Origin: a plasmid | Length of the DNA stretch: 64,000 nt | Direction: 5' to 3' (one strand) | NCBI RefSeq assembly: GCF_056746865.1 | Contig: NZ_JBWKMP010000003.1 | Shown: piece after piece, positions 1,461-53,664 of the stretch | Layout: each line of letters opens with the position of its first letter | Position numbering within the stretch: the stretch's first letter is position 1 | Position numbers and translations under genes: made by a program | The notes under the pieces: generated by a model | Databases searched by the model: none | Seen by the model: only the letters and a program-made list of their open reading frames with translations | Told to the model about the DNA's origin: nothing

Positions 1461-2968
1461 TGGCTGGTGGTCGTAAGATTAAGTGCGTCACCAGTGATCC
1501 ACGTTGGCGCGATATGGTTATCAGGTATCGATACAACTTTACCCAGGCGGTTGTCGATATTTTTGGGATGTTCCCCTCCCACCAGCAGCAGCAGATCATT
1601 CAGTCAGTGCAGGAGACGGGGAGCAGGACGACCGTTACGTCCGGACACGGAACGGGTAAGTCGTCCCTTACCGCGATGTTGCTACTAATTTTTATGATCC
1701 TGTTCCCCGACGCCCGCGTCATTATTGTTGCGAACAAAATAGGCCAGGTAAAAACAGGCGTATTCAAATACGTGAAACAGTTTTGGGCGAATGCTGTTAA
1801 GCGCCACGGCTGGTTACAGACCTATTTTGTCCTGTCTGACACCATGTTTTATGAGCGTTCCCGTAAAGGGATATGGGAAGTGCTCTGTAAAGGTTATCGA
1901 CTCGGTAACGAAGAGGCACTGGCGGGGGAGCACGCGGAGCATTTACTGCTAATCCTTGATGAAGCATCGGGCATATCCGATAAGGCGATTAACGTCATGA
2001 CGGGGGCGTTAACGCAGAAAGATAACCGTATGCTCATGCTTTCCCAGCCTACGCGTCCAAGCGGTTACTTTTATGAATCTCACCATTCAAGGGCAAAGGC
2101 AGAAGGCAATCCGGAAGGTGTCTGGACGGCAATAGTCCTTAACTCTGAAGAATCACCATTCGTTGAACCGAGCTTTATTCGTGAGAAATTGCTGGAGTAC
2201 GGCGGCAGGGATTCGCTGGAGTACATGGTTAAGGTGCTGGGCCAGTTCCCGCGTGCAATTAACGGGTATTTGCTTGGTCGTGATGAGTGCGACCGCGCCG
2301 CACGGCGTAAAGTGTTGCTGGAGAAAGATTGGGGCTGGGTAGCGACCGCTGACGTCGGTAATGGTCGCGATAAATCGGTGCTCAATATATGCAAAGTATC
2401 CGGTTATCGTGAGAAACGACGCGTTGTGAACTTTAAGATACTGGAGATGCCAGGCACTATGGACCCGTTGGCTTTTGCCGACTTTATCTATAACGAATGC
2501 ACTCCTGATAAATACCCGAACATCACCATTGCTGTGGATGCTGATGGCTTTGGTTCAGATACGTGTGCGCAGCTTGTCCGCCGTGGTGCTAATCCCGTTC
2601 GCATCCGTTGGGGTAAGCCTATGTTTGCGCTAAGAGACAGAGAACGCTTTGTCAATCAGCGTGCTTACGCCAATATTATGGCAGGGGATGCCATTAAATC
2701 CGGGCGTATGCGTATCGATAGTGACCCCAAAACCGCAGATCAGGCATCAAAAATCCCGTATATGCTTAACGAAGAAGGGAAGGTAGCGATGATGCGCAAG
2801 GAGCACATGCGGCAGAAGTTAAACATCAAGTCACCGGACAGATGGGATACCTACTGCTTCACTATGCTGGTGGATTACGTGCCTGCTAATGAAGACATTG
2901 GCGCAGAACTCGCAACATTCCGCGATCAGGTGTTGGCAGAAGTGGATATTCCTGATATTGACATTTAA
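1460..2968 (+). CDS. pacB: terminase large subunit (PacB-like)
   Basis: Walker A (TSGHGTGKSS) and Walker B (LLILDEASGI) motifs; 502 aa; translationally coupled to pacA. Confidence 0.75.
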   Translation: MAGGRKIKCVTSDPRWRDMVIRYRYNFTQAVVDIFGMFPSHQQQQIIQSVQETGSRTTVTSGHGTGKSSLTAMLLLIFMILFPDARVIIVANKIGQVKTGVFKYVKQFWANAVKRHGWLQTYFVLSDTMFYERSRKGIWEVLCKGYRLGNEEALAGEHAEHLLLILDEASGISDKAINVMTGALTQKDNRMLMLSQPTRPSGYFYESHHSRAKAEGNPEGVWTAIVLNSEESPFVEPSFIREKLLEYGGRDSLEYMVKVLGQFPRAINGYLLGRDECDRAARRKVLLEKDWGWVATADVGNGRDKSVLNICKVSGYREKRRVVNFKILEMPGTMDPLAFADFIYNECTPDKYPNITIAVDADGFGSDTCAQLVRRGANPVRIRWGKPMFALRDRERFVNQRAYANIMAGDAIKSGRMRIDSDPKTADQASKIPYMLNEEGKVAMMRKEHMRQKLNIKSPDRWDTYCFTMLVDYVPANEDIGAELATFRDQVLAEVDIPDIDI

Positions 2969-2969
2969 A

Positions 2970-2995
2970 AGCCCCGGCGATTCGGGGCTTGTGGG
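2970..2995. terminator. hairpin between convergent pacB and the leftward immunity-slot gene
   Basis: AAGCCCCG-gcgatt-CGGGGCTT stem-loop; a short T-run follows only in the minus-strand reading. Confidence 0.4.
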
Positions 2996-3005
2996 TGGCT
3001 TGCGA

Positions 3006-4043
3006 TTACCAGAGTTTTGCCGCGTACATCGTTTGTGTGAATGTGTACCCATAGCGTTCTTCAACGCTTTTACCGTATTTTTTCCTGGCTTCAGTAAGGC
3101 GGATGCCTGTCAGGTCATCGCCGGAGGCAATCATAACTTCCAGTAGTTCCAGGTCCATTTTATCCAGCCTTGCCATTGCATCTTTAGCCTCTTGAATTTT
3201 CCGGCTAACGATCTGGTGTATGGCTGGATCGGCTTCGGCCAGCATTTTATCTGATTTGTTTTTTAAACTCTGATTGCGGATATCAATGTTTCTCAGGATA
3301 TATGACTTCACGACGTAGCTTGGCTGCTGCTTTTCCAGATCACGAACCCGATAAAGGTCAAATTCGCCGAGAAGTCCGCACGGAAGCGGTTTAATGCCAG
3401 TGTAAATGGTAAGGGTGCGGCGCTCACCAACGTTGTTAACAACGGGAATCTCTGTGTTTGCTTTTTTTGCAAAGATCAGCGCACCGTGCGTACCCACTCT
3501 GAAGCGTGAAAGTCCATTGTTGCCCTCAATATTGGTGGTAATCACCACATCGGTATAACCTTCTTTTCTTGCGCGGTATACCTCGCCCTCACGTTCAGCG
3601 GCGAAGAATCTGCGTTCTTCTTCAAGCGCACCGACAACCTGTGAAAATATCCTGTTTTTCATGCTTTTCTTTATAGTTTTATCGTATTTTTTCAGCAGGT
3701 CTTCGCGCGTAAATGTTCTCGTTGTGGTTGCGCTTTGCATAACGATGTGCGTACTCTGATTAGTATCCTCAACAATGAATGGGATCGGTAAATAAACCGA
3801 CTCAACAATGTTTGAGGCTTTGTCATCATCCTTGCGACACAGATCAACAAAGGCTTTCCATTCGGCTATGCATTTTTCAGCTTCTTCTAATACAGCCGGA
3901 TCATGTGTTAATGCAACATGGCGAAATTCCTCGCCAACATAACTGGTATCATGGAAAACAGAGTTTGCGACCACCAGCTCTTTCCACCTTTCAGCGGTTT
4001 GCAGGAACCGTTTGTACTCATTCTCGATCGACTTCTTACTCAT
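3006..4043 (-). CDS. hypothetical protein in the c1 immunity-repressor slot
   Basis: Start taken at the internal ATG (plus 4041-4043) with AGGAA Shine-Dalgarno; operator-like motifs lie just upstream; position between pacB and rox/dre matches P1 c1; no recognised domain. Confidence 0.5.
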   Translation of the reverse strand: MSKKSIENEYKRFLQTAERWKELVVANSVFHDTSYVGEEFRHVALTHDPAVLEEAEKCIAEWKAFVDLCRKDDDKASNIVESVYLPIPFIVEDTNQSTHIVMQSATTTRTFTREDLLKKYDKTIKKSMKNRIFSQVVGALEEERRFFAAEREGEVYRARKEGYTDVVITTNIEGNNGLSRFRVGTHGALIFAKKANTEIPVVNNVGERRTLTIYTGIKPLPCGLLGEFDLYRVRDLEKQQPSYVVKSYILRNIDIRNQSLKNKSDKMLAEADPAIHQIVSRKIQEAKDAMARLDKMDLELLEVMIASGDDLTGIRLTEARKKYGKSVEERYGYTFTQTMYAAKLW

Positions 4044-4060
4044 TATTCCTACTCGATTTA

Positions 4061-4157
4061 GTTTTCTAACATAAAAGTCCTGTGACAAATTTATGCTGAA
4101 TAACAAGGTGAGTAAAGGATAAAACCGCTTTTTTTTGATTGTTCCTATTAGAAAATG
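4061..4157. promoter_or_regulatory. two operator-like motifs upstream of the immunity-slot gene
   Basis: GTTTTCTAACA at 4061-4071 and ATTAGAAAATG at 4147-4157; same motif family as the palindromes at 24565 and 35913. Confidence 0.4.
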
Positions 4158-4239
4158 TAACCAGGAGCGGCTACCGCATGGCTGACGGATTTGCGAAGTG
4201 ATCTGGTCGGTGTTTTTTTGGGAAAAAAGTTCCGATTTC

Positions 4240-4271
4240 TAACTTTAAATAATTGGCATTATTTAAAGTTA
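4240..4271. other. rox recombination site (Dre target)
   Basis: TAACTTTAAATAAT-TGGC-ATTATTTAAAGTTA: perfect 14-bp inverted arms around a 4-bp asymmetric spacer; its reverse complement matches the rox site as I recall it; 152 bp upstream of dre. Confidence 0.85.
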
Positions 4272-24640: not shown

Positions 24641-25216
24641 ATGAAGCAAAGCTATTGGGAGAAACAGACACAAAAAGCCCTGCAAAAACTGGCTGATCCG
24701 AAATGGCGGGAGGAACAAAGGGCAAAGCGTCTTCAGCAAGCTCAACGCCAGCAGCAGCGTGCGCGAGAAAAAGCCGCATCGCCTGAATATCGGCAAAAGA
24801 AAATTGAAAAAGCGAAGCAATATGAACAGCGAAGAAAAGAGAAGGCCGCTTCTGCTCCTGTCAAAAAAACTCGCGCGTCACGCGGCCTGAAAGGCAGAAC
24901 ACTCACAGCAGATGAGCGCCGGATACAAACTGCCATCGGTGCTCTCCCCTGCATTGCCTGCCATATGCACGGACAGCATAGCCCTGTGGTATCCCTGCAC
25001 CACATCTTCGGGAGAACAGCAGAAAACGCGCATAAATACGTCCTCCCTTTGTGTAAATGGCACCATCAACACGCAGCGCCAGCAGAGATCCGCGAGCAAT
25101 ACCCCTGGTTGGTTCCTGTTCATGCTGATGGAAAAATAGGCGGCAAAGCAGATTTCAGGCGGCACAATGCTGATGAAATGACGTTGTATCAGATGGTGAC
25201 TGAATTAATAAATTAA
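24641..25216 (+). CDS. ref: Ref-like HNH endonuclease (recombination enhancement function)
   Basis: Highly charged, basic N-terminal region followed by a Cys/His HNH-like core (CIACHMHG...LPLCKWHH); start at ATG 24641, not the track's TTG. Confidence 0.5.
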   Translation: MKQSYWEKQTQKALQKLADPKWREEQRAKRLQQAQRQQQRAREKAASPEYRQKKIEKAKQYEQRRKEKAASAPVKKTRASRGLKGRTLTADERRIQTAIGALPCIACHMHGQHSPVVSLHHIFGRTAENAHKYVLPLCKWHHQHAAPAEIREQYPWLVPVHADGKIGGKADFRRHNADEMTLYQMVTELIN

Positions 25217-25547
25217 TTTTCTAACATTTTAAGTTGAATTGTGAAATTCGCCGTTGTACATTCACAACCGATTGGTACACCGGTCAACTTTTTGAGACAA
25301 ACCGTTTGGTTTTTCGTATGATTGCCGCCGCCATACCAATGGCGGTGCAATATAGGTGGCTGAAAAGCCCCCGTTGACTCACGGTGTTCCAACCTTTATT
25401 GCGCCGCCACCAGACCGTGGAACAGTCGATGGCGGCTCCGAAAGCAAGGAGTCACTACACTATGAACAGCTACTGTCTTTTCCCATCACTCGTTATCCGC
25501 CACTCACGCGATAATCTGCATTCTTTACTCGCGCTGGGGGTGTCAAA

Positions 25548-25715
25548 ATGACCGTTCGCTATCTCAACTTTCAAATCCAGAACATCACTGGCGGTTGCTA
25601 TGACTGGTTTGTCACTCTCGGAAAAGAAGTGATCACCGGGAAGCTGGATGAAGTGAAAGCTAAAGCAATGGCCTACGCCTGCAAGCAAGCCCAAAAGAAG
25701 AAAAGAAAAGCATAA
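25548..25715 (+). CDS. small ORF (55 aa) with Lys-rich tail
   Basis: GGGGGTG Shine-Dalgarno; found by eye. Confidence 0.25.
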   Translation: MTVRYLNFQIQNITGGCYDWFVTLGKEVITGKLDEVKAKAMAYACKQAQKKKRKA

Positions 25716-25818
25716 GAAAACACACAGTTGCGCCCTGGCATTATCGTGGGGTATATTTCTACGGCACCTTAGAAAAACGGGTGCCGGGATTGGAACCCCG
25801 GATAATGTCAAAGGCGAC

Positions 25819-25846
25819 ACAGACGCCGAACGCGTCTTTTTTTGTG
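25819..25846 (+). terminator. hairpin with T-run between target site 1 and the c4-like RNA
   Basis: AGACGC-cgaac-GCGTCT followed by TTTTTTGTG; short stem. Confidence 0.35.
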
Positions 25847-25892
25847 TCATGCCATCGCACAGCCATACTTAGCGTTTAGCTCAGAGATCAAT

Positions 25893-25972
25893 GGTAGTGC
25901 TGGCTGGGCTGCCGAAAGGCAGGCCGGTTCCCTTTGACGCCGGTAGTTCCAACCCAGTCAGTGCTACCGCCA
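25893..25972 (+). ncRNA. c4-like antisense regulatory RNA (immI-type)
   Basis: About 80 nt; acceptor-like stem GGTAGTGC / GTGCTACC followed by G-CCA; internal GNRA hairpin CTGCC-gaaa-GGCAG; single-stranded CCCTTTGAC and GTTCCAACC complementary to sites at 25787-25814 and 25975-26020. Confidence 0.4.
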
Positions 25973-26028
25973 TTGAGATTGGAACCTCACGCGGTAGCTC
26001 CTTAACTTAGTCAAAGGAGGCTGCCAAT

Positions 26029-26244
26029 ATGGCTACTATCCCTACCCCAACTCATTCTGAATTTATCTGGCGTTTCTATTCCTGCCAAAAACACCTTTAT
26101 ATCTGCGTAATGGCTGCTACCGAAGCAGAGGCGCGCTCATACCTTCCCGAAGAACCCTGCATTTTTGCTGCTCGCTTCACTCTTGATGCGATGGAGATCC
26201 TCAATTACTGGAATCTGCCAATGAACTGCGTGGAGGTGCACTGA
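26029..26244 (+). CDS. Icd-like small protein, translationally coupled to ant
   Basis: 71 aa; AAGGAGG Shine-Dalgarno lies inside the predicted antisense target; stop overlaps the ant ATG. Confidence 0.45.
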   Translation: MATIPTPTHSEFIWRFYSCQKHLYICVMAATEAEARSYLPEEPCIFAARFTLDAMEILNYWNLPMNCVEVH

Positions 26245-27185
26245 TGAATCTGTCCATCTCTCAAAAAGCGACAATGACCAGCATTGAGATCGCGGAACTG
26301 GTAGGAAGTCGCCCAGATAGTGTGAAGAGAACTATCGAAACACTGGCTAAAAAGAGTGTGATTCAATTTCCACAATCTGTGGAAATTGAAAATAAACAAT
26401 CAGTTGGCCCTCGTCGATTTTCCAAGGCTTACATCTTTGAAGGCGAACAAGGAAAACGAGACAGCATCATTGTCGTCGCGCAGCTCTCTCCGGAATTTAC
26501 CGCCCGGCTGGTGGACCGCTGGCGCGAACTGGAGAATGCCCGGGTACAGTTAAAATCCAAAGCCGAAATCCTGGCCGAAATGGCGCAAATGCATCTTGAG
26601 CATGAACGCCGGATCAACGCCGTTAATGCCCAGGTAGCCGAAGTATCGGCACAAGTGTCCAGGGTCACCGAAACACTTGAGCAGATCAAGAAAGGCAATA
26701 TTCCAGAAGGCTACATTGGCTATCGCCAGTTGGCGGCAAAATGCGGCCTGACTGAAGCCAAATGCCGCAACCTGGTCAACGCTTACCGGATACCCACTGA
26801 TACGCATGAGTTTTTAACTCCCGACGGTTTGCTTGCGCGACGCTCCATTGTGGCCCTGGCCCCCTTCCGGAAAGCCTTTAAGCAGGTTATGTCGGAGGCA
26901 GAACCACGTAACAAACGCTGGTATCATCCCAGGATGGGGCTATTTCAGGCCATTCACCATCCTGTGCCTGAAAGTCCAAAGGCAAACCTGTCGTTGCATA
27001 CCGCCAGAGAGAAGATTAAAACAGGGTATGCAACCGTATGCCGTCGAGCATCCTGGCCTGAAAGTGTCTGGGTATGGCCCGAAAGAGGCTCACGGAAAAA
27101 CTGGCGCACCATTCGCGACGGCAAGATCTGTGCGATTGATTTACAGCCAGAAGATGTAGCAGCGACCGACTGGATTGTTAGTTAA
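26244..27185 (+). CDS. antirepressor-like protein (Rha-type N-terminal domain)
   Basis: N-terminal TSIEIAELVGSRPDSVKRTIETL resembles the Rha / phage-antirepressor N-domain; occupies the ant position. Confidence 0.55.
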   Translation: MNLSISQKATMTSIEIAELVGSRPDSVKRTIETLAKKSVIQFPQSVEIENKQSVGPRRFSKAYIFEGEQGKRDSIIVVAQLSPEFTARLVDRWRELENARVQLKSKAEILAEMAQMHLEHERRINAVNAQVAEVSAQVSRVTETLEQIKKGNIPEGYIGYRQLAAKCGLTEAKCRNLVNAYRIPTDTHEFLTPDGLLARRSIVALAPFRKAFKQVMSEAEPRNKRWYHPRMGLFQAIHHPVPESPKANLSLHTAREKIKTGYATVCRRASWPESVWVWPERGSRKNWRTIRDGKICAIDLQPEDVAATDWIVS

Positions 27186-52619: not shown

Positions 52620-52910
52620 TGAGGGCAATATCTACACCTGCTGTTTACGTCAATGATGGCATTTTTTACACATCACAACAAAATCAACGCGTTACAACCA
52701 TAAAACATTCAACAGTAGTGCGATAAAAATAGCTATAGCATACGATGCCATCTGAGGGTGATTTTTACACATTCCTTATTAATCAATAAATTACAAATAA
52801 TGTTAGCCGTTAAAGATCCAACCAACTAACTAATGATGTAAGAATTGCCCTCAATCTCCCATCTTTAAGGGCAAATCCTACACCTACAGAGAGGTGTAGA
52901 AATTGCCCTT
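52620..52910. repeat. incA-like iteron cluster downstream of repA
   Basis: About five ~21-bp copies in both orientations, for example TTGAGGGCAATATCTACACCT (52620) and TAAGGGCAAATCCTACACCT (52868). Confidence 0.5.
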
Positions 52911-53664
52911 AAGACTGCTGATAGGTGAATTTTATTTTTGTAACTCTGCCACCTTCTGTAACCTCTGAGAAAACTATTTTCATTTTTGTGTTTTTTTCGA
53001 TTTCAGCTACAGCTTTTGCCAGAAAGCTTCTCTTAAATTCGGCGTACCGTTGATAGCTTTTGGGAAGACCATAACGCTCCCGCATCCATTCAACGCCAAG
53101 TATAGCGAAGCCGCTCCCATCATCCTTTCTATACTGGCATAAGGACTCATAAAGCCGCATAGAATAAGGGTTTGTCAGGCGAGACACTTCAGTAAAATTC
53201 AGCCTCGTGAACCTCTTATCAAGCAGAGTAAAAAACGGCATGAGATATGGATTCAGATGAATAATGTAAGTCCCCCGGCGTGGTGAGTAAGCCTCCTTAA
53301 TCATCCAGGGATAAGACTCATAACTGTCTTCTGATTCGGTTGATTCATCAGGGTTATATATCGTGACTTTCTTCTCACTAAGTCCGGAGATAGCTTTACG
53401 AATATCCTTGCTGGCTTCAGCAGAGGGCAAATTATACATCTCTGCATATTCGTTGACCGTCAACTCACAGGCACCTGAACCAAGAACGCCATCCTTAGAA
53501 GCATAGCGAAGTCTTCCCACCACAATAAACAACAGTCGCTTTTGGTCGCGTGTCAGGTGATAAGCCGCCTCTGTGATCTCATTGGCCTGCGCCAAGCTAC
53601 GGCTAATTGGTGTCGCTGATTCAATCAGACTGACGGCTTTTGCCGTTAATTCCGCTCTGTTCAT
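52909..53664 (-). CDS. repA: RepA-type plasmid replication initiator (start uncertain)
   Basis: Call is contextual: no sequence motif was checked; sits between two iteron clusters with a DnaA box and AT-rich tract upstream. About 250 aa from ATG 53664. Confidence 0.55.
   Translation of the reverse strand: MNRAELTAKAVSLIESATPISRSLAQANEITEAAYHLTRDQKRLLFIVVGRLRYASKDGVLGSGACELTVNEYAEMYNLPSAEASKDIRKAISGLSEKKVTIYNPDESTESEDSYESYPWMIKEAYSPRRGTYIIHLNPYLMPFFTLLDKRFTRLNFTEVSRLTNPYSMRLYESLCQYRKDDGSGFAILGVEWMRERYGLPKSYQRYAEFKRSFLAKAVAEIEKNTKMKIVFSEVTEGGRVTKIKFTYQQS

Follow-up and report, generated by a model that had tools for sequence, protein, structure and literature searches.

RNase P releases the c4 RNA in phages P1 and P7, and Forti et al. 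are reported to have found in 1995 that it also matures the CI RNA of P4. The C4 family entered Rfam in 2010. The model of Citron and Schuster for P1 is summarised in supplement 1 of PMC2864571; the idea that the upstream sites a1 and b1 act as a decoy goes back to that P1 work. In Gifsy-1, an RNA of about 80 nt is processed from a read-through transcript and a short leader acts as an activator in trans (PMC4825925). The CI RNA of P4 brings about premature transcription termination on the replication genes (PMC4825925); its main effect is on termination and not on translation. For a D6-like plasmid, homologues of c4, icd and the antirepressor as well as a second region comprising c4 and icd have been described (PMC6799933).

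The locus considered here, 93.7% identical to that of phage D6, is located within a 64-kb stretch of plasmid DNA, referred to as the window, which is 100% identical to D6-like E. coli plasmids of about 90 kb such as NZ_LR890273; matching plasmids number about 440. It harbours an RNA which is a member of the already catalogued C4 family and possesses recognition sequences of its own (Table 1). As claimed in an earlier note on this DNA, whose coordinates are correct to within one or two bases, the locus follows the c4/a1b1/a2b2 layout of P1, being collinear with the annotated P1 elements a1, b1, c4, a2, b2, icd and ant. The resemblance to immI of P1 and P7 comprises the order of the elements on one strand, the RNA fold with its single-stranded a' and with b' in the loop of hairpin 2, the position of b2 over the icd ribosome-binding site and the overlap of icd with the gene following it. 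The recognition sequences differ, as the note had likewise maintained: in the window a reads TTGGAAC and b reads GTCAAAGG, while the corresponding elements of P1 read TTGACAG and GTTAGTG, and heptamer and octamer deviate even from those of D6, with compensating changes at every target site. Further differences from P1 concern the gap between leader and C4 (44 nt compared to 25 nt) and the upstream neighbour, which is ref in the window and sim in P1. The Rfam C4 match, the collinearity with P1, the Icd homologue and the coupled antirepressor bear out the assignment as a P1-style immI circuit. The best explanation of the locus, which we consider very probable, is that a D6-like phage-plasmid of the P1 group possesses here an immunity module of the immI type, operating by the full mechanism proposed below.

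The same order of ref, small ORFs, leader, C4, icd, a Rha-type antirepressor gene and pmgF is found in D6 and pYU39_89, and D6 likewise contains a degenerate C4-like RNA upstream. The D6 record has no RNA annotated at this locus. In contrast to this conserved order, the recognition elements have diverged: a' is GTTCCAA in the window and GTCTCAA in D6, and b' is CCTTTGAC in the window and CCTTTTGC in D6. This corresponds to 2 + 2 compensated bases, a difference of the same size as that between P1 and P7, which form a heteroimmune pair. Since a' and b' differ from those of D6 with matching changes at the four target sites, heteroimmunity between this plasmid and D6 is predicted at the C4 module.

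As a discovery the module carries little weight, the mechanism having already been worked out in P1/P7, P4 and Gifsy-1. It has value for annotation: RefSeq records with identical sequence show an 'ash family protein' of 39 amino acids over the RNA and no ncRNA. Moreover, an a/b pair read from the sequence predicts cross-immunity among phage-plasmids, and the comparison of 15 loci used below constitutes a unifying data set for P1, P4 and the Salmonella leaders.

Table 1. Features of the C4 module and its surroundings (window coordinates)
Feature	Position	Strand	Remarks
C4-2, degenerate C4-like RNA	25335-25414	+	Rfam C4 42.3 bits, below gathering
Predicted sites of C4-2	TGGAACA 25418-25424; GAGTCA 25449-25454	+	From sequence
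icd remnant, 29 aa	25462-25551	+	Coupled to 55-aa ORF (25548-25715)
Putative sigma-70 promoter	25728-25757	+	-35 TTGCGC (25728-25733), 18-nt spacer, -10 TATATT (25752-25757)
Leader RNA of isrK / P4 seqA / c4-a1b1 type	25764-25842	+	Rfam isrK; two hairpins
a1 TTGGAAC	25790-25796	+	Loop of leader hairpin 2; 7/7 pair with a'
b1 GTCAAAGG	25807-25814	+	Single-stranded in leader; 8/8 pair with b'
Intrinsic terminator after b1	stem 25821-25837 + U run	+	Terminator scan
C4-type antisense RNA gene	25887-25974	+	Rfam RF01695, full length
GAAA (GNRA) hairpin of C4	25909-25922	+	Predicted fold
Hairpin 2 of C4	25923-25944	+	Predicted fold; b' CCTTTGAC (25931-25938) in loop
a' GTTCCAA of C4	25946-25952	+	Single-stranded, 3' of hairpin 2
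Alternative hairpin	25963-25998	+	25963-25971 pairs with 25990-25998; a2 in loop
G-CCA after C4 closing stem	25969-25972	+	From sequence
a2 TTGGAAC	25979-25985	+	Loop of mini-hairpin GAG...CUC (25975-25988); 7/7 pair with a'
b2 GTCAAAGG	26010-26017	+	Overlaps Shine-Dalgarno; 8/8 pair with b'
Shine-Dalgarno AAGGAGG of icd	26014-26020	+	8 nt 5' of ATG at 26029
icd-like gene, 71 aa	26029-26244	+	First translated gene of operon; P1 Icd homologue
Antirepressor-like gene, 313 aa, Rha family	26244-27185	+	phrog_63, PF09669

Structure of the C4-type RNA and complementarity to its target sites

Two of the checks which the earlier note had proposed, a covariance-model search and folding, both turned out in its favour. 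The Rfam C4 model (RF01695) is matched over its full length (positions 1-87 of 87) with 77.1 bits at a gathering cutoff of 45 (E = 2.4e-13), and the segment 25893-25972 adopts a stable predicted structure of -46.5 kcal/mol (z = -5.0), none of 200 shuffled sequences being as stable. The acceptor-like closing stem is indeed present, yet it comprises 16 pairs in the predicted fold and 17 in the Rfam consensus (25892-25908 with 25953-25969) instead of the 8 bp attributed to it; the G-CCA following this stem and the GNRA hairpin are found as described. The mature RNA is predicted to extend from about 25893 to 25972, its 5' end being placed by alignment to the annotated c4 RNA of P1. The RNA resembles an RNase P substrate in shape, its stem terminating in G-CCA and its 5' end aligning with the mature end in P1. 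In 15 homologues the stems of C4 comprise 27 pairs with 99.3% of the cells paired, and compensatory double changes are observed in 13 of these 27 pairs; not one of 500 shuffles matches the observed covariation value. A scan for tRNA and tmRNA by ARAGORN yielded no genes within 25000-26500 and recognised no cloverleaf.

The presence of two antisense segments in C4 (CCCTTTGAC starting at 25930 and GTTCCAACC starting at 25946) with matching sites both upstream and downstream is confirmed by exact matches of 7 nt and 8 nt, which show the right antiparallel order on both sides. The plus strand of the window contains GTCAAAGG at three positions only (25807, 26010 and 43300), and GATTGGAAC is present in the window only at 25788 and 25977. 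The chance of finding a 7-mer and an 8-mer both in two chosen stretches of 80 nt amounts, by an arithmetic estimate, to about 4e-11. The downstream site covers, as had been asserted, the ribosome-binding site of the icd-like gene, b2 overlapping its AAGGAGG. The energies of the single short duplexes are not exceptional, neither compared to shuffles nor compared to a scan of the whole window; hence, the case rests on the exact matches, their order and their covariation. A cofolding test of C4 against the target sites was discarded as uninformative, the algorithm being unable to represent loop-loop (pseudoknot) contacts.

Covariation was assessed in a set of 15 related loci including P1, P4, D6, RCS47 and Stx phages. 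Between the RNA and its targets 447 out of 450 positions pair, compared to a mean of 303 upon permutation, and none of 20000 permutations reaches 447. The 15 loci contain 11 alleles of a' and 10 of b', each of which is matched at a1, a2, b1 and b2, while no non-cognate pair of alleles is fully complementary. At a2 and b2, all 7 and all 8 positions, respectively, pair with the cognate a' and b' in every one of these loci, and b2 overlaps the Shine-Dalgarno sequence in 15 out of 15. RNAalifold analysis of the a2-b2 region reveals only invariant pairs (CCUC with the GAGG of the Shine-Dalgarno sequence), covariation thus speaking neither for nor against them.

Leader, promoter and icd-antirepressor operon

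The upstream target sites belong to a leader of the isrK family, which is structured and ends in a terminator. Its fold consists of two hairpins, with a1 exposed in the loop of the second one and the single-stranded b1 immediately followed by the terminator. Rfam isrK (RF01394) matches positions 25764-25842 with 61.3 bits at a gathering cutoff of 50, whereas c4-a1b1 (RF03163) attains only 22.4 bits at a cutoff of 46.7. Therefore, the leader belongs to the isrK/P4 subtype and not to the subtype of P1, whose own leader scores 51 bits with c4-a1b1 and 35 bits with isrK. Of 14 fetched loci which were scanned, 13 contain an isrK-type leader at a distance of 23-107 nt 5' of C4. The 15-locus comparison shows the a1/b1 region of P1, seqA of P4 and the IsrK elements of Salmonella to be one leader. 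A short terminated transcript binding Hfq and acting in trans would be expected of a leader of this type; the window shows the terminator and the family match.

Transcription of the module presumably starts near 25764, just downstream of the putative promoter. Hexamers of the type TTGAYY or TTGCYY and TAYNNT are present at the promoter position in all 15 aligned loci; those of P51b in P1 read TTGACC/TATAGT, and P4 possesses corresponding ones. A consensus promoter scan did not call the promoter at 25728-25757 because its -35 hexamer is weak.

The icd product shares 63% identity with Icd of P1 (E = 6e-28) and matches the NCBIfam model NF033153 (phage_ICD_like) with 49 bits at a cutoff of 25; phrog_1426 is matched, too. 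Its stop codon TGA overlaps the ATG of the antirepressor gene (TGATG at 26242-26246). The proposed coupling of an icd-like ORF to an ant-like gene thus holds with respect to homology of icd and overlap of the genes, but the antirepressor is of the Rha type and shows no homology to Ant1 of P1 in a BLASTP comparison (E = 0.38). While sharing the role class of Ant1/2, it belongs to another protein family: it matches phrog_63 ('anti-repressor Ant', E = 3.5e-58) and, over residues 11-98, the Pfam family Phage_pRha (PF09669). As it is not homologous to Ant1/2, its target repressor is assumed. Unlike P1, the whole window contains no match to the P1-type C1 operator (ATTGCTCTAATAAATTT, up to three mismatches), this consensus being that of P1 and maybe not that of a D6-type C1. 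A match to RybB at 26325-26400 on the minus strand (26.9 bits at a gathering cutoff of 40) was taken as chance.

Proposed mechanism and competing readings

If the relatives serve as the model for RNA processing, for repression and for what a1/b1 do, the module would function as follows. A weak constitutive promoter near 25728-25757 would give rise to a transcript from about 25764, whose first 80 nt would constitute the leader, showing a1 in a hairpin loop and b1 just 5' of the intrinsic terminator. Read-through transcripts would contain C4, and its tRNA-like long stem ending in G-CCA would lead to the release of a stable RNA of about 80 nt. This RNA would display the octamer b' in the loop of hairpin 2 together with the heptamer a' in the adjoining single strand, both of which would pair with a2 and b2 of the mRNA. 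Because b2 overlaps AAGGAGG, this pairing would block the start of ribosomes on icd and, since the antirepressor start is located inside the icd stop codon, the antirepressor would not be translated either. Without antirepressor the prophage repressor would remain active, and any incoming phage sharing the a/b 'address' would be kept down. The binding of the same C4 by a1/b1 probably serves as a competitor or decoy, or as a means of C4-enhanced termination at the leader terminator, or both. Repression of the genes downstream by C4 in trans, and the determination of immunity specificity by this RNA, are suggested by the covariation and by the parallel with P1 and P7.

The transcript may also fold in other ways. 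The alternative hairpin makes use of the 3' strand of the C4 stem, so that it and the C4 fold are mutually exclusive. In 14 loci 93.5% of its cells pair, 7 of its 12 pairs show compensatory changes and none out of 500 shuffles equals it. This hairpin is part of the fold of lowest energy predicted for the complete read-through transcript; the thermodynamic minimum is a cis duplex of leader and C4 instead of the C4 fold, with the Shine-Dalgarno sequence in a hairpin (z = -6.1).

It is conceivable, if rather doubtful, that the module mainly operates in the manner of P4. C4 would then pair with a1/b1 and a2/b2 of the nascent transcript and provoke premature termination (at 25821-25842 and downstream), the block of the ribosome-binding site not being the main effect. 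In P4 (seqA-CI RNA-seqC), matches to the isrK and C4 families indeed follow each other as in the window; its target sites are arranged alike and, being members of the 15-locus set, covary with the RNA in the same manner. Termination by CI RNA proceeds via pairing with seqA and seqC (PMC4825925). In the window, a good intrinsic terminator lies directly 3' of b1. The covarying hairpin over the 3' strand of C4 would fit termination as well, and several relatives possess a T run 3' of it; in the window, however, this T run is weak. Biere et al. are said to have reported in 1992 that in P1 termination is secondary to the translational block. The overlap of b2 with the Shine-Dalgarno sequence throughout the 15 loci is what translational repression predicts, and the operon of the window is an icd-ant operon as in P1, whereas P4 has no such operon and a gap of 107 nt between leader and RNA. 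Termination and block of the ribosome-binding site are, moreover, not mutually exclusive.

Similarly tentative is an activation as known from IsrK, in which the terminated leader RNA (25764-25842) would bind a'/b' in trans, open an inactive structure and thereby activate translation of icd and the antirepressor gene. The leader of the window is a full match to the isrK family, the decoy idea for a1/b1 mentioned above is in line with this reading, and in Gifsy-1 a fusion to the antirepressor gene downstream is translated more than 100-fold better in response to the short IsrK RNA (PMC4825925). For the window, the predicted fold of lowest energy of the read-through transcript, with its cis duplex, reproduces the inactive 'structure A' of that study. 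Gifsy-1 (isrK-orf45(STnc1160)-anrP) further resembles the window in that the leader falls into the same Rfam family, the downstream gene encodes an antirepressor and the processed RNA of about 80 nt occupies the position of C4; by arithmetic, the first AUG of orf45 (nt 107) coincides with the AUGG at the 5' end of C4. Yet Gifsy-1 has no icd, its antirepressor gene following directly. In addition, orf45 overlaps the next start, whereas the ORF over C4 in the window ends 5' of the ribosome-binding site, 19 nt upstream of the icd ATG; hence, the coupling route from orf45 to anrP is not exactly transferable. Activation by the leader would complement repression by C4 rather than replace it.

We consider it very unlikely that 25891-26010 represents a protein gene (the 'ash family protein' of RefSeq, equivalent to orf45 of Gifsy-1) in which the RNA structure is incidental. 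This segment does contain an ATG-initiated ORF of 39 amino acids, present as a CDS in RefSeq plasmids, the frame over C4 runs on without a stop into the gene downstream at 10 of the 15 loci, and an orf45-SPA fusion has been detected in Gifsy-1 (PMC4825925). The substitutions, however, follow stem compensation and target sites and not codons, and the peptide over C4 is poorly conserved, comprising only 14 amino acids in P1. No NCBIfam model matches the product of the 39-aa ORF, and its PHROG matches are internal pieces of long ORFs called across the RNA. In Gifsy-1, too, the nucleotide sequence is conserved while the amino acid sequence is not (PMC4825925). We give virtually no credence to complementarities arisen by chance in the neighbourhood of a stable but unrelated hairpin or of a tRNA-like relic: although single duplex energies are unexceptional in the whole-window scan, this reading is refuted by the C4 score of 77 bits and the covariation of RNA, both sets of targets and stems in 15 loci, with the four exact and correctly ordered sites and the absence of a tRNA call by ARAGORN likewise standing against it.

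A second, degenerate C4-like RNA

Upstream of the immI-type module lies a second C4-like RNA (C4-2), whose score of 42.3 bits (E = 3.5e-6) falls short of the Rfam gathering cutoff of 45 and whose fold reaches z = -5.3. Of its own predicted sites, GAGTCA overlaps the Shine-Dalgarno sequence AAGGAG (25446-25451) of the icd remnant. In plasmids of E. fergusonii and S. dysenteriae, homologues of C4-2 are followed by an intact gene encoding an Icd-like protein of 61 amino acids. Both the loops of C4-2 and its predicted sites are invariant in all homologues fetched. C4-2 shares the single-stranded heptamer GTTCCAA with the main RNA (a'), and its hairpin loop is able to pair with six contiguous bases of the main b2 (UUGACU with AGUCAA, 26009-26014). 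In view of these matches, the predicted binding of C4-2 to the main icd ribosome-binding region is roughly as good as that to its own sites (7 + 6 pairs each). Phage D6 does not have this match.

On the basis of these matches C4-2 might be wired into the main circuit in this particular allele, which we regard as unlikely. If it were so, then, together with a further P1-type c4-icd-ant module found elsewhere in the D6 genome, the antisense 'address codes' of D6-like plasmids would form a small network, orthogonal in part and in part subject to cross-talk, and would evolve by independent swapping of a and b elements.

C4 RNA, target sites and adjoining genes

An antisense circuit resembling immI of P1 had been proposed from the sequence, and everything listed in the earlier note is present in 25764-26031; the observation is confirmed and its interpretation is supported. 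Curated Rfam models name both RNA elements outright (see table), C4 being matched over the full model with 77.1 bits (gathering score 45) in the covariance-model search called for earlier and isrK with 61.3 bits (gathering 50). In accordance with the proposed structure, the C4 segment folds with -46.5 kcal/mol (z = -5.0 compared to dinucleotide shuffles) into a long closing stem, a CUGCC-GAAA-GGCAG hairpin and a second hairpin, with G-CCA located 3' of the stem. While stem, G-CCA and GNRA hairpin are thus recovered, the stem comprises 16 pairs according to the predicted fold, or 17 according to the Rfam consensus, instead of the 8 originally suggested. G-CCA behind such a long stem would fit a predicted RNase P substrate, and Hartmann et al. 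reportedly found in 1995 that RNase P generates the 5' end of C4. ARAGORN detects no tRNA at the module.

RNA elements of the main C4 module
Feature	Position	Strand	Basis
Leader, isrK type	25764-25842	+	Rfam RF01394
C4 antisense RNA	25887-25974	+	Rfam RF01695
Alternative hairpin	25963-25971 with 25990-25998	+	covariation in 14 loci and fold

The 12-nt loop of the second hairpin contains CCTTTGAC (b'), and GTTCCAA (a') lies within the 8-nt single-stranded stretch 3' of this hairpin. Their exact complements flank C4 on either side, TTGGAAC at 25790 and 25979 (a1 and a2) and GTCAAAGG at 25807 and 26010 (b1 and b2), in the order which antiparallel pairing requires and which had been claimed. By simple arithmetic, the chance of four such sites within two 80-nt stretches amounts to about 4e-11. 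In the whole 64 kb the a-site motif GATTGGAAC occurs at the two a sites only, and GTCAAAGG has one further occurrence on the + strand. A good intrinsic terminator is located immediately 3' of b1. As anticipated, the octamer at 26010 overlaps the ribosome-binding site of the icd-like gene (AAGGAGG, 26014-26020, 8 nt 5' of the ATG at 26029).

The ORF thus preceded (26029-26244) encodes an Icd homolog (63% identity to P1 Icd, E = 6e-28) which matches NCBIfam NF033153 above cutoff. Its stop codon overlaps the start of the antirepressor gene (TGATG), whose 313-aa product belongs to the phrog_63 antirepressor family and carries a Phage_pRha domain, so that the coupling to an ant-like gene had been recognised correctly. 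Comparison of this protein with P1 Ant1 reveals no homology. In RefSeq the antirepressor gene carries a pseudogene flag ("incomplete; missing C-terminus"; 3545-4255 of the RefSeq record L003, window 26244-26954), although the ORF in the window is intact with 313 aa and an end-to-end phrog_63 match; the call is probably an annotation artefact of the mosaic C-terminal part. A weak RybB-like match inside this gene (26325-26400, - strand; 26.9 bits against a gathering score of 40, E near 0.01) is probably due to chance. A 601-bp core of the module is 100% identical in several non-mobilizable E. coli plasmids of about 90 kb and shares 93.7% identity and a like gene order with phage D6, a P1 relative living as a plasmid prophage.

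Covariation and the proposed control of icd

The homologous region was taken from 13 further phages plus D6 and P1. C4 was found in all 14 fetched loci scanned with Rfam, and 13 of these, satellite phage P4 included, have isrK at a distance of 23-107 nt upstream of C4; the sole exception is interrupted by IS629. In the 15-sequence alignment the three C4 helices are 99.3% paired, and two-sided changes occur in 13 of 27 pairs (matched by 0/500 shuffles; slid controls 30-50%). The 15 loci comprise 11 a' heptamers and 10 b' octamers in 15 combinations, that of the window joining a as in phiP27 to b as in RCS47, and in every locus a1, a2, b1 and b2 change along with a' and b'. Cognate pairing reaches 447 of 450 positions, a value attained in none of 20000 permutations (mean 303, maximum 379), and among the 15 loci no non-cognate pair of alleles is fully complementary. 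This covariation argues for a functional pairing of the RNA with its targets.

By analogy, the P1 model (summarised in PMC2864571 supplement 1) offers the best-supported reading of the module. C4 would pair with a2/b2 and mask the ribosome-binding site of icd, and the block of icd would shut off the coupled antirepressor. Biere et al. are said to have observed in 1992 that blocked icd translation leads to termination ahead of ant.

A role of the upstream a1/b1 sites is suggested by the relatives in P4 and Gifsy-1. In P4, transcription ends prematurely when CI RNA pairs with seqA and seqC. In Gifsy-1, where IsrK has already been called a structural homolog of P4 SeqA, this short terminated RNA acts in trans to switch on translation of the antirepressor encoded downstream, and an RNA of about 80 nt, STnc1160, is processed out of the read-through transcript (PMC4825925). 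By position (77-nt leader + 24-nt gap + 5), the first AUG of Gifsy-1 "orf45" (nt 107) corresponds to the AUGG at the 5' end of C4. When the complete read-through RNA is folded (25764-26040, z = -6.1), the minimum-energy structure differs from the C4 fold: a long cis duplex of a1..b1 with b'..a' forms, the Shine-Dalgarno sequence being held in a hairpin, and this duplex corresponds to "structure A" of the Gifsy-1 work. Since the window contains both a terminator after b1 and a fold of this type, termination control as in P4 and a leader acting as decoy are regarded as layers that complement each other and not as genuine rivals.

The same minimum-energy fold contains the alternative hairpin, in which the 3' strand of the C4 stem pairs downstream with a2 in the loop, excluding the C4 fold. 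This helix covaries as well: across 14 loci 93.5% of the cells are paired with double changes in 7 of 12 pairs (0/500 shuffles match; slid controls 36-55%). A T run comes after this helix in several relatives, with a weak tail in the window; such a run has been remarked for some C4 RNAs by Weinberg et al. (PMC2864571 supplement 1).

The reading frame annotated over C4

RefSeq/PGAP places a 39-aa "ash family protein" exactly on C4 (25891-26010, +) and annotates no ncRNA. That this frame is a protein-coding gene and the RNA structure incidental is very improbable: although in 10 of 15 loci the frame that begins with the AUG inside C4 stays open and shares its phase with the downstream start, the peptide shows poor conservation, is reduced in P1 to 14 aa and has no match among the NCBIfam models, the substitutions over C4 are patterned like those of an RNA, and PHROG matches of the translation are internal parts of "repressor/regulator" families. 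The latter suggests that these "transcriptional repressor/regulator" families include long ORFs mis-called across the RNA.

In the D6 GenBank record a hypothetical ORF runs over the C4 region on the other strand. Around the start codon at 26029, GGAGGCTGCCAWYATGGCTAC (window 26014-26036) is nearly invariant in nucleotides in 14 loci (window, L001, L004-L012, L014-L016), extending to loci with a Rha-type antirepressor in place of icd.

Relation to P1, P7 and D6, and further C4-type RNAs

The P1 record annotates Op51, P51a/b, a1, b1, a 77-nt c4 RNA, a2, b2, icd and ant1 in the order found in the window. As here, P1 a' (CUGUCAA) is a single-stranded heptamer, b' (CACUAAC) resides in the hairpin-2 loop, and b2 extends into the icd Shine-Dalgarno sequence. 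The P1 arrangement is thus exactly reproduced with different recognition elements, as had been stated. The P1 leader scores 51 bits with the Rfam c4-a1b1 model and 35 bits with isrK, whereas the isrK-strong window leader reaches a weak 22 bits with c4-a1b1 in a relaxed scan; they are two sub-types of one leader.

In the classic heteroimmune pair P1/P7 the a sites read TTGACAG vs TTAGCAG and the b sites GTTAGTG vs GATTGTG, leaving 6/7 and 6/8 positions paired for P1 C4 on P7 sites. Window and D6 differ by two bases in each recognition element, all compensated, and window C4 on D6 sites equally retains 6/7 and 6/8 pairs. Because of this parallel, we predict the plasmid and D6 to be heteroimmune at the main module.

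A second, degenerate C4-like RNA, C4-2, lies upstream (25335-25414, +; 42.3 bits, slightly short of the gathering score (45), E = 3.5e-6 in a relaxed scan; fold z = -5.3) and is conserved in D6 and about 119 plasmids. Its heptamer is complementary to a predicted site TGGAACA (25418-25424) and its loop to GAGTCA (25449-25454), a site covering part of the AAGGAG (25446-25451) ahead of a 29-aa ORF (25462-25551) coupled to a conserved 55-aa ORF (25548-25715, phrog_7786). Since plasmids of E. fergusonii and S. dysenteriae keep an intact 61-aa Icd-like gene behind C4-2, the 29-aa ORF is read as an internally deleted icd remnant. The homologs compared show no variation in the C4-2 pairing elements by which pairing could be judged. 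In the window allele these elements are complementary to the a2/b2 sites of the main module as well (7+6 pairs), making cross-talk possible. The main module belongs to a catalogued family and has been noted in this phage group before; its residual value lies in the annotation error, a readable specificity code and this possible cross-talk.

The Rfam scan found no third C4 in the window; by synteny, a P1-type c4 module would lie outside it. D6, RCS47 and 673R5 contain, elsewhere in the genome, an extra match (90-93% identity) to a probe covering the P1 leader, c4 and icd start: in D6 at 2501-3692 of the fetched segment 18407-23677, followed by a complete icd-ant pair adjoining repL, in RCS47 at 52738-53024 and in 673R5 at 80790-81078. 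As the same genomes carry the isrK-type module, they contain two C4-type RNAs, or three in the case of D6, which differ in their recognition sequences. In the Stx phage TL-2011c a strong sRNA-Xcc1 family match (79.6 bits, L011 2215-2298) lies just 3' of the Rha-type gene following C4; this family has been mentioned for genomes carrying C4 and isrK (APSE phage preprint, 10.1101/2020.03.17.996009).
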